Source of the DNA: Escherichia coli
GTDB taxonomy: Bacteria > Pseudomonadota > Gammaproteobacteria > Enterobacterales > Enterobacteriaceae
Strand: one strand, 5' to 3'
Length of the DNA: 64,000 nt
Assembly: GCF_016026235.1 (NCBI RefSeq)
Contig: NZ_CP065613.1
Of this stretch, positions 56,601 to 59,600 are shown piece by piece. How positions within the stretch are numbered: the stretch's first letter is position 1; the number at the start of each line of letters is the position of its first letter. A program made the position numbers.

Positions 56601-59600
56601 TGCTTGTCTGTAGTCAGAAATATAGAGACACCTTATTAAATCTTTAAGTTTTATCTTACTCTTTTTGTATATATACTGAGTATTTGGACATTTATAATAT
56701 ATAAAATAATAGCGTTTGATGTTAAGGAAAATCTCCATTATTGAATATTTATCGCCAATTGTTTAGTAAAAAATCAGTGCCACATGTTTTCTCTTATATG
56801 CACGCTACCGCCCCTGGCTTTACAGCTACCAGAGCACTGCATGCATGCCTACGATGTGACGAGCGTTACCCACTCGCGCTAAACCCGAAAAATTCAAACG
56901 CTAATTGTCTTACCAATCCGCTCTGGAAACAAGGAAAATCCTGGAAAACTTTGACGAAAATCCTATTGCTAACTCTTTGTTATTCTGATTGTTTATATAA
57001 AACAACGGCAGGAATATTCGCAACAAATTACCTTCGCCGCAAATCTTCACAGCCGTTATAATTTTCTTATCAACCGTTACATCCGGTCAGATTTTCATTA
57101 TTCGCTTAACAGCTTCTCAATACCTTTACGGAACTTCGCCCCTTCTTTTAGGTTACGCAGTCCATACTTCACAAACGCCTGCATATAGCCCATTTTTTTA
57201 CCGCAGTCGTAGCTGTGACCTGTCATCAGCATGGCATCAACGGACTGTTTTTTCGCCAATTCGGCAATGGCATCAGTCAGCTGAATACGCCCCCATGCAC
57301 CTGGCTGAGTGCGTTCAAGTTCCGGCCAAATATCGGCAGAAAGCACATAGCGACCAACGGCCATGATGTCTGAGTCCAGCGTCTGCGGCTGATCCGGTTT
57401 TTCGATAAATTCGCCGATGCGGCTGACTTTACCTTCACGATCCAGTGGTTCTTTGGTCTGAATGACGGAGTATTCAGAGAGGTCACCCGGCATACGTTTT
57501 GCCAGCACCTGGCTGCGGCCCGTTTCGTTGAAGCGCGCAATCATGGCAGCAAGGTTGTAGCGTAGCGGATCGGCGCTGGCGTCATCGATAACAACGTCTG
57601 GCAGTACCACGACAAATGGATTGTCACCAATGGCAGGTCGTGCACATAAAATGGAGTGGCCCAAACCTAAAGGTTCGCCCTGACGCACGTTCATAATAGT
57701 CACGCCCGGCGGGCAAATGGACTGTACTTCCGCCAGCAGTTGACGCTTCACGCGCTGCTCAAGGAGAGATTCTAATTCATAAGAGGTGTCGAAGTGGTTT
57801 TCGACCGCGTTCTTGGACGCGTGAGTTACCAGGAGGATTTCTTTGATCCCTGCAGCCACAATCTCGTCAACAATGTACTGAATCATTGGCTTATCGACGA
57901 TCGGTAGCATCTCTTTGGGAATCGCCTTAGTGGCAGGCAACATATGCATCCCAAGACCCGCTACAGGAATAACTGCTTTTAAATTCGTCATTATTTCATC
58001 CACCTGTAAAATGGTTGCTGAATTATAGCTTGTTCGATTTTTTTCGCCAGCATCAATTACCCTGAATTGATTACTGAATTACTTATGATGTTACGCCGCT
58101 TCGTTGTGGATTGCAGTAGCATTGTTCCTAAGTATGGCTCCATTTTTCCAGGAATGGTCGCAAATCTACTCCCTCCGTTCCGGCAATCTAAAGTTAATCT
58201 TTTCCACATTAACAATATGGTGATTAACCCTGTCGATATCGACGGAGCTTTGTCCTTTTTCATTCACCGCATGAACATTTGCAAGAGATAGCAGTGTTTC
58301 TTTTTTCGCCATAAAGACACCTCGTACGTCTTTGCGCATGTCGAAGTTCATGCTCAATGCGGGTCCAACAGAGGATTCCTGCATCACATTGATATTTCTC
58401 ATAAAAAGGTGTTGCGGTTTGTTGTGTAACTCCAGCGACGCACGCTTCATCTCAATGTTAGTCAGCGCCACAAAGGAGACAGCATTCCCGGCAGAGATTT
58501 GGATGCCGCGCAATTTATAAACAAGGTGGGTGTTATCCAGTTGAATATTATTCACTCGGAAATTTTGCGGTATCGAGAGATATTTGCCTTTAATTACCCC
58601 ATAGCCGATTAACATCCCGGCGCTATTAATCATTTCAATATTATCAATCACGAAATTATTACAACCGTAAATAGCGACCGTGGCGTTATCAATACCTGCT
58701 TTCTTACTGAAATCCGGTGTGATATTGCGGGCTTTGATATTACGGATAACAAAATGTTTCCCATTTTCAACATGGATCAACTGTCGACAGTCCGATCCGG
58801 TGATATTCGCCACGACAAAGTTTTTCACTGCCTGGTCTTCCGGGTAGTTGTTATCGTAAGTACTCCCCGCAAGACCTATGCCAATGCCCCAGTTGATTTT
58901 GCCGTTAGTACAATTGATGCGCTCGATGACATGGTCAGATATCAAAATATCACGGTCGTTAATTGCCACGTTCCATTCAATGGCGTCGCCCTGTAAGTCG
59001 CTGAACTTACAATTGGTGATATTGGCACCGATAATCTGGTTATGAAATCCCTGACGTAAGATGGCGTAGTTAGCGTGGCTAACGGTGAGGTTATCGATGG
59101 TCAGGTTGCGCATAACCCGTTTGTTTTTGCCGCCGATATAAATCTGCGTTACCGGGCCAAAGCCGCTCATCGCCAGCCCTTTGATGGTGCAGTCAGAGCC
59201 GCGCACATCCAGGGTGATGTTATGCATACTGCCGCCCTCCTCCCCTGTCACCTGGCTGCCGTCCTGTAAGACAAATCGCCCTCTGCCGTTGCCGCGCAGG
59301 CTTCCAAGGATGTGTAACGTTTTGCCAGGAGGAATGAAGATGCCGGTGTTGATATTGTCACAAACCAATCCGCCAGGCACGACGACCGTTTGCCCTTCGC
59401 TGAAGGCTTGTTTAAATGAGGCGATCCAGTCGTGTGGGTTGTAGTCGTTAATGTTAACGCTTTGTCTGGCGGGAAGTGCACGAGCGAAAGGGGTATGGAG
59501 GAAGGCAAGCGCCGAGCTTGCCGTCAGGAAGGTGCGTCGGGAGAGTTTTTTAAATGGCATACGTTCTCCTCTATAAAGCCTGCAGCAAGCTGGCGAGTTC

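Follow-up and report, generated by a model that had tools for sequence, protein, structure and literature searches.

A JUMPstart/ops element in the leader of an Escherichia coli O143-type O-antigen operon

At positions 56839..56801 of the minus strand, the window (the whole 64-kb stretch of Escherichia coli DNA analysed here) carries the 39-nt JUMPstart element CAGTGCTCTGGTAGCTGTAAAGCCAGGGGCGGTAGCGTG, which ends in an exact ops site. The two belong to an O-antigen operon of E. coli O143 type (Shigella boydii type 8-like). The explanation as a whole, in which RfaH would load at this ops and allow read-through of the operon, is held with high confidence. The element is of an already known kind, sits in its canonical place and brings nothing new on JUMPstart/ops biology. 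An earlier note on this DNA had described a 39-nt JUMPstart on the minus strand at 56800-56838; the length and strand stand, the coordinates are one base too low, and the reading as a whole is supported. The element comprises the following features.

56801..56839, minus strand: JUMPstart (RF01707, 60 bits; 39/39 identical to K-12 rfb; 5-bp stem CUGGU/GCCAG at 56832..56814)
56801..56812, minus strand: ops, RfaH loading/pause site on the non-template strand (role from the literature); single exact match in the window

An ops site is recognised on the non-template strand by a 12-nt consensus, GGCGGTAGCGTG, whose 8-nt core is GGCGGTAG. The 3′ end of the JUMPstart, at 56812..56801 of the coding (non-template) strand, agrees with this consensus at 12 of 12 positions; the core, in which the earlier note held that mismatches would speak against its reading, contains none. 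No other exact copy of GGCGGTAGCGTG exists on either strand of the 64-kb window, the other nine matches having 2 mismatches each. By our own arithmetic, about 0.008 exact 12-mer matches would be expected by chance on both strands, so the ops match is not a chance one. Flanked on the minus strand by GCATGCATG on the 5′ side and CATATAAG on the 3′ side, the element matches the Rfam JUMPstart model over its full length (RF01707, model positions 1-38 of 38, E = 1e-12, at a gathering score of 35), with 5/5 stem pairs standard. It also contains the direct repeat GGTAGC-N15-GGTAGC, in which N15 is TGTAAAGCCAGGGGC. The element lies in the non-coding leader that separates galF from the first O-antigen gene, on the strand of the downstream genes. 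A scan of the whole window at the gathering threshold finds no second JUMPstart. When Rfam is searched over 55500-58200 with E values up to 1 allowed, JUMPstart is still the only RNA family found, so the long leader holds neither a riboswitch nor a known sRNA.

The only minus-strand ORFs overlapping the JUMPstart encode 22 aa and 23 aa; considered as genes, they are treated as mechanical, with no convincing Shine-Dalgarno sequence visible. Within the wzy-galE interval, the ops-like sequence GGCGGTAACGTC at 47558-47569 on the minus strand was considered as an RfaH reloading site and rejected: it has 2 mismatches, one of them at G8, which we take to be among the essential ops bases.

The K-12 rfb, wza and waaQ loci were retrieved for comparison, and Rfam finds a JUMPstart in each. 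Alignment with the JUMPstarts of other clusters, the check that the earlier note had proposed, comes out in its favour, with 39/39 identity to K-12 rfb (O16; galF-rfbB) and an exact ops in 8/8 O-antigen loci. The JUMPstart of strain CP131 is likewise identical at 39/39. K-12 rfb further resembles the window in its distance from the galF stop, ops starting at intergenic position 289 in both, and in an upstream spacer of ~95% identity that includes the terminator-like hairpin and promoter-like blocks described below. The two loci differ beyond ops: K-12 has a leader of 75 nt followed by rfbB, the window one of 485 nt followed by a HisC-like aminotransferase gene. The elements of K-12 wza (colanic acid) and waaQ (LPS core) match RF01707 with 57.3 and 55.2 bits, and all lie in the leader before a long envelope-polysaccharide operon. 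Their 3′ half, GCC(A/T)GGGGCGGTAGCGTG, is identical to that of the window bar one stem base in waaQ, whereas the 5′ half and flanks are unlike. The block GGGGCGGTAGCGTG is invariant in the window, K-12 rfb, wza, waaQ and CP131 copies.

Read along the minus strand, the order is galF, a terminator-like hairpin, a promoter-like block, a small stem-loop, JUMPstart/ops, the leader and the genes, with wcaM, wcaL, wcaK and wzxC located beyond galF on the upstream side. The features preceding the JUMPstart are these.

57098..57991, minus strand: galF, UTP-glucose-1-phosphate uridylyltransferase subunit (ORF; 894-nt galF in the near-identical RefSeq locus L001)
57002..57059, minus strand: long hairpin followed by a GUUUUAUAU tract, terminator-like, just after the galF stop (MFE -26.7 kcal/mol)
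56890..56943, minus strand: promoter-candidate block (-35-like TTGTTT at 56932..56927, 17-nt spacer, -10-like GACAAT at 56909..56904)
56859..56877, minus strand: 7-bp stem-loop GCGAGUG-GGUAA-CGCUCGU in the 5′ UTR upstream of the JUMPstart, present in both the MFE and centroid folds

The hairpin with its GUUUUAUAU tract looks like a galF terminator, one that parts galF from the O-antigen transcription unit. About 55 nt long, it recurs in seven other loci with energies of -18 to -34 kcal/mol, and in the divergent loci ETEC1746, B20123 and CB7286 the stem sequence is changed while the architecture is kept. Its length exceeds the limit of a simple terminator scan, which therefore does not report it. 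Across eight divergent galF-JUMPstart spacers, conservation of at least 90% is confined to four blocks: 57015-56999, which corresponds to the 3′ arm of the hairpin, 56943-56923, 56918-56890 and the JUMPstart itself.

Judged from the sequence, a promoter likely lies ~60-100 nt upstream of the JUMPstart, at 56943..56890, with TTGTTT-N17-GACAAT as its putative hexamers and an implied start near 56898. A 173-nt leader is said to have been mapped for the O7 cluster by Marolda and Valvano in 1998, which fits a start near that position. A simple sigma-70 scan does not call the TTGTTT/GACAAT candidate, and literature searches on galF-promoter mapping and, separately, on GroN/serinol in O antigens yielded nothing of use. 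In the small stem-loop, the equivalent stem of B20123, ACGAGCG...CGCUCGU, has standard pairs in place of two G-U pairs. The fold of 56900..56790 gives z = -0.82, an overall 5′ UTR stability that is not unusual, so stability provides no evidence of structure in this region.

Downstream of the leader, the cluster extends on the same strand to gnd.

55209..56315, minus strand: gene 1, HisC-like class I/II PLP aminotransferase, 368 aa, TTG start (Pfam PF00155, E = 3e-47)
54554..55237, minus strand: gene 2, HAD-IB family phosphatase, 227 aa (Pfam PF12710; TIGR01488, 70 bits, cutoff 45)
53640..54557, minus strand: gene 3, TupA-like ATP-grasp amidoligase, 305 aa (Pfam PF14305, E = 2e-45)
53197-53643, minus strand: gene 4, hexapeptide acyltransferase (ORF, Pfam)
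51999-53204, minus strand: gene 5, wzx (ORF, Pfam; RefSeq 'O143 family O-antigen flippase' in L001)
51124-52017, minus strand: gene 6, GT2 (ORF, Pfam)
50012-51127, minus strand: gene 7, GT1 (ORF, Pfam)
48753-50015, minus strand: gene 8, wzy (ORF, Pfam; RefSeq 'O143 family O-antigen polymerase' in L001)
wzy-epimerase interval: IS debris
45989-47002, minus strand: galE/gne-type UDP-hexose 4-epimerase (NCBIfam TIGR01179 galE, 443 bits)
44875-45678, minus strand: second GT2 glycosyltransferase (Pfam PF00535)
42617-44023, minus strand: gnd, past the last cluster gene

As the earlier note had proposed, the aminotransferase, HAD and ATP-grasp trio comes first, heading eight polysaccharide genes on the strand of the JUMPstart. 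These eight genes overlap successively by 4-29 nt (29 nt between genes 1 and 2, 4 nt between genes 2 and 3), the packing expected of a single transcription unit. Intrinsic terminator-like sites within the cluster show no excess over shuffled sequence (8 found, 8.4 expected). Over both the leader and the entire cluster, sigma-70 and intrinsic-terminator scans stay at the level of shuffles, and so neither pinpoint the promoter nor speak for internal terminators. The TTG start of gene 1 is also the RefSeq start and is preceded by GGAG at 6 nt. Its product finds its best PDB matches in histidinol-phosphate aminotransferases and scores 262 bits against NCBIfam TIGR01141 hisC, slightly under the cutoff of 276.55. 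In RefSeq, the product of gene 3 is called 'ATP-grasp fold amidoligase family protein'. For the trio, a 2-amino-1,3-propanediol amide pathway is proposed. E. coli strain D10, in which wzx and wzy carry the RefSeq label 'O143 family', aligns with the interval 62121..42572 over 19.6 kb at 98.4% identity. With serogroup-specific wzx and wzy and the gene order of the reference cluster, the cluster is assigned to the O143 type by sequence, and E. coli O143 and S. boydii type 8 would both fit as its source.

The leader between the last ops base (56801) and the TTG at 56315 measures 485 nt, close to the ~480 bp given by the earlier note; in four other clusters the corresponding distance is 75, 75, 81 and 100 nt. 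The length arises because ~300 nt of the leader derive from an ISAs1 (H-repeat) insertion sequence, of which they are the degenerate 5′ end. Two parts are distinguished.

56479..56777, minus strand: decayed 5′-end remnant of the ISAs1 family (H-repeat), leader positions 24/28-322 (window 56777/56773..56479)
56316..56478, minus strand: AT-rich 3′ part of the leader, 163 nt, ending in GGAG-N6-TTG, a Shine-Dalgarno-like sequence and start codon

The remnant consists of the upstream non-coding part of the IS and approximately the first 55 transposase codons, with indels and stops throughout. By blastn, it is 69-71% identical (E = 4e-28) to the ISAs1 copies adjoining the JUMPstart in two other loci (L002 and L007), and 67-70% identical to the ISAs1/ISEc1 copies ybfD, ydcC and yhhI found in 4911/5426 genomes. 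In frame 2, the relic '...ISDYRQAWKV*' matches the transposase N-terminus 'IIPDYRQAWKVEHKL'. A MAFFT alignment suggests that the remnant may extend to ~7-10 nt from ops. An intact DDE transposase gene with both terminal repeats is absent and ~300 nt remain; 56479..56777 is a remnant, not an ISAs1 element. The 3′ part of the leader is confined to O143-type genomes, namely the four that carry the whole leader, and leader plus first gene occur in 4/5426 complete E. coli genomes.

Remnants of this kind at O-antigen cluster junctions are known, for instance in Salmonella group D2, where an H-repeat element or remnant likewise sits where conserved DNA passes into serogroup-specific DNA (PMC3715488). 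Within E. coli, an ISAs1 copy starts 8-11 nt after ops in 183/5426 genomes, representing two or more further cluster types (L002 and L007), and in both examined examples it is a frameshifted pseudogene. The remnant of the window occupies the equivalent place; it differs from those copies in keeping only ~300 nt of the 5′ end, at ~70% identity and without coding capacity.

The reach of the shared flank was determined in the set of 5426 complete E. coli genomes. Used as a query, the galF-to-JUMPstart spacer finds matches in 4624 genomes, and in 3655 of these the match covers at least 80% of the query. Nearly all matches listed break off 0-3 nt past the last ops base (query position 296-300); the 3′ end of ops is thus the edge between the shared flank and serogroup-specific DNA. 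In galF the GC content is 0.48-0.53; it falls to 0.26 across the leader, stands at 0.31 for the body of the cluster and is back at 0.50 in gnd. The earlier note had the element define the start and polarity of the operon. Polarity holds, and the element also marks the 5′ edge of the serogroup-specific DNA; the start does not, as the JUMPstart would lie within the 5′ UTR, downstream of the candidate promoter.

This distribution, with the spacer common to 3655/5426 genomes and homology ending just after ops, means that the element travels with its flank. It could be inherited passively with galF, carried along at each recombinational swap of O-antigen clusters, the cluster of this strain being driven mainly by promoters that arose in the AT-rich IS-derived leader downstream of ops and RfaH contributing little. 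Two sigma-70-like sites in the leader, each matching at 10/12 positions (56725..56696 and 56617..56588), could indeed give RfaH-independent transcripts. Promoter-like sites in the leader, however, occur at chance frequency (8 against 4.7 ± 2.1 in shuffles). Passive hitch-hiking is also contradicted by ops itself: the exact 12-mer is retained in all eight O-antigen loci, although their galF-JUMPstart spacers vary from 97% identity to virtually no alignable sequence. It is invariant also where the spacer is 72-78% identical or cannot be aligned (ETEC1746), and its retention despite spacer divergence points to selection on the element itself. ChIP data from another E. coli strain, in which RfaH loads at the O-antigen leader ops (PMC9765446), likewise weigh against this account, which we consider improbable.

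Still less probable is an action mainly at the RNA level, in which the JUMPstart hairpin or a short RirA-like 5′-UTR RNA would bind RfaH and tune its availability. The element is modelled as an RNA by RF01707, its conserved 5-bp stem is intact in the window, and in K-12 the annotated sRNA RirA covers the JUMPstart of waaQ. The window differs from waaQ in this respect, as no such RNA is annotated or evident in it, and no terminator or processing signal for a short RNA was found after ops. The established mechanism, moreover, is recognition of non-template-strand DNA, according to Artsimovitch & Landick 2002 as cited in PMC9765446, and a role of the RNA would supplement RfaH loading at ops rather than supplant it. 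Chance resemblance without biological meaning is refuted by the RF01707 E-value, the exact 39-mer shared with K-12 and the canonical location between galF and the first gene.

Loading of RfaH at the ops of the JUMPstart is the preferred reading, and its course would be as follows. Transcription of galF would stop at the hairpin and U-tract (57059..57002), and RNA polymerase would start anew at the conserved, weak promoter ~60-100 nt upstream of the JUMPstart, transcribing a 5′ UTR of ~580 nt. Within this UTR, the polymerase would pause at ops with GGCGGTAGCGTG exposed on the non-template strand, and RfaH would bind the exposed DNA, displace NusG and remain on the polymerase. The RfaH-modified complex would then withstand pausing, Rho-dependent termination and H-NS-mediated silencing, thereby permitting read-through of the 26%-GC IS-derived leader and ~12.8 kb of 31%-GC genes. 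At this particular ops, pausing, loading of RfaH and anti-termination are expected from the literature on related operons, and by the same analogy the untranslated leader and the AT-rich cluster would form a substrate that needs RfaH. The rfaH gene is located outside the 64-kb window.

Published work provides the basis for this scheme. In E. coli CFT073, each target operon, the O-antigen unit included, has one leader ops at which the ChIP signal of RfaH sets in, ops-like sites inside translated genes recruit no RfaH, and RfaH counteracts H-NS/StpA on AT-rich DNA (PMC9765446). The rfb and waaQ operons carry ops/JUMPstart in the 5′ UTR and require RfaH, according to a review (PMC6358824) and to Wang et al. 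1998, cited in PMC2864571. The wording of the earlier note, in which the element "confirms" RfaH control of this cluster, is too strong; such control would follow by analogy with the published rfb, waa, kps and hly operons. rfb and waaQ are described as lacking a ribosome-binding site (PMC6358824); given the GGAG before its TTG, coupling of translation through RfaH may matter less for gene 1.

In conclusion, the element establishes the polarity of the cluster and sets its 5′ boundary at 56801, which is useful for annotation, and the aminotransferase, HAD and ATP-grasp trio is placed nearest the promoter in a single long transcription unit of the RfaH type. The ISAs1 relic after ops is a modestly informative addition that accounts for the long leader and bears on O-antigen cluster exchange. 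Tentatively, the site just 3′ of ops could be a recurrent landing or recombination site of ISAs1/H-repeat elements that mediates the replacement of O-antigen clusters, a possibility we rate as somewhat doubtful. If true, the 485-nt, 26%-GC untranslated leader of O143 could raise the dependence of the operon on RfaH, or could supply it with IS-derived promoters that are independent of RfaH.

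Roughly 300 nt of the O-antigen leader, which lies between ops (the 12-mer at the 3′ end of JUMPstart) and the TTG start of the first gene, is filled by an ISAs1/H-repeat relic. An ISAs1 copy starting 8-11 nt past ops is present in 183 other E. coli genomes, spanning at least two other cluster types, and both of the post-ops copies examined are frameshifted pseudogenes. The elements of the window considered here are as follows.

56479-56777, possibly up to ~56794 (minus): degenerate remnant of the 5′ part of an ISAs1/H-repeat element, at 67-71% identity
56774-56842 (minus): mechanically called 22-aa ORF running through JUMPstart, ATG at 56842
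57002-57059 (minus): ~55-nt hairpin with U-tract, directly past the galF stop codon
41280-42571: ~1.3-kb insertion in the gnd/ugd interval, with a 431-aa DDE_Tnp_1 transposase (ORF 41299-42594, minus)
47003-48752: IS debris in the wzy-galE gap, marked by a GC spike and by a pseudogene at the equivalent D10 position
47558-47569 (minus): ops-like site with 2 mismatches, inside the wzy-galE gap
53640-56315 (minus): HisC-like aminotransferase, HAD-IB phosphatase and TupA-like ATP-grasp amidoligase
30033-30156 (plus): His operon leader (Rfam, gathering level)
27220-27294 (minus): STnc240, an enterobacterial sRNA (Rfam, gathering level)
9014-9250 (plus): IS102 RNA (Rfam, gathering level)

The hairpin and U-tract following galF are retained in eight divergent loci despite differing stem sequences, and on this conservation the structure looks like a galF terminator; a simple terminator scan of the sequence did not call it. 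Inspection by eye revealed no convincing Shine-Dalgarno sequence for the 22-aa ORF, which is thus probably untranslated.

Ops-like 12-mers with at most two mismatches number 10 in the whole window, against an expected 3.46 ± 1.71, a count reached in none of 100 shuffles. Nine of the ten are scattered two-mismatch sites, and the surplus may be compositional in origin.

The near-identical locus of strain D10 lacks the gnd-ugd insertion, whereas elsewhere it is 98-99.8% identical to the window. At the place equivalent to the wzy-galE gap, D10 carries an ‘integrase core domain’ pseudogene; in the window, GC peaks at 0.47 within this gap (47400-47799), and the debris breaks up a cluster that is tightly packed elsewhere. 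In the window, the adjacent wzy (48753-50015, minus) has an unbroken reading frame of 420 aa, but the gene is annotated as frameshifted in D10 (L001, the D10 locus, 23092-24173).

Within the promoter-proximal trio, the HisC-like aminotransferase scores slightly below the hisC equivalog cutoff. The three genes fit a pathway that converts a keto-phosphate to an amino-alcohol, for example 2-amino-1,3-propanediol, and then joins this to a uronic acid through an amide bond; a substituent of this kind is presumably present in the O antigen of O143 / S. boydii type 8.
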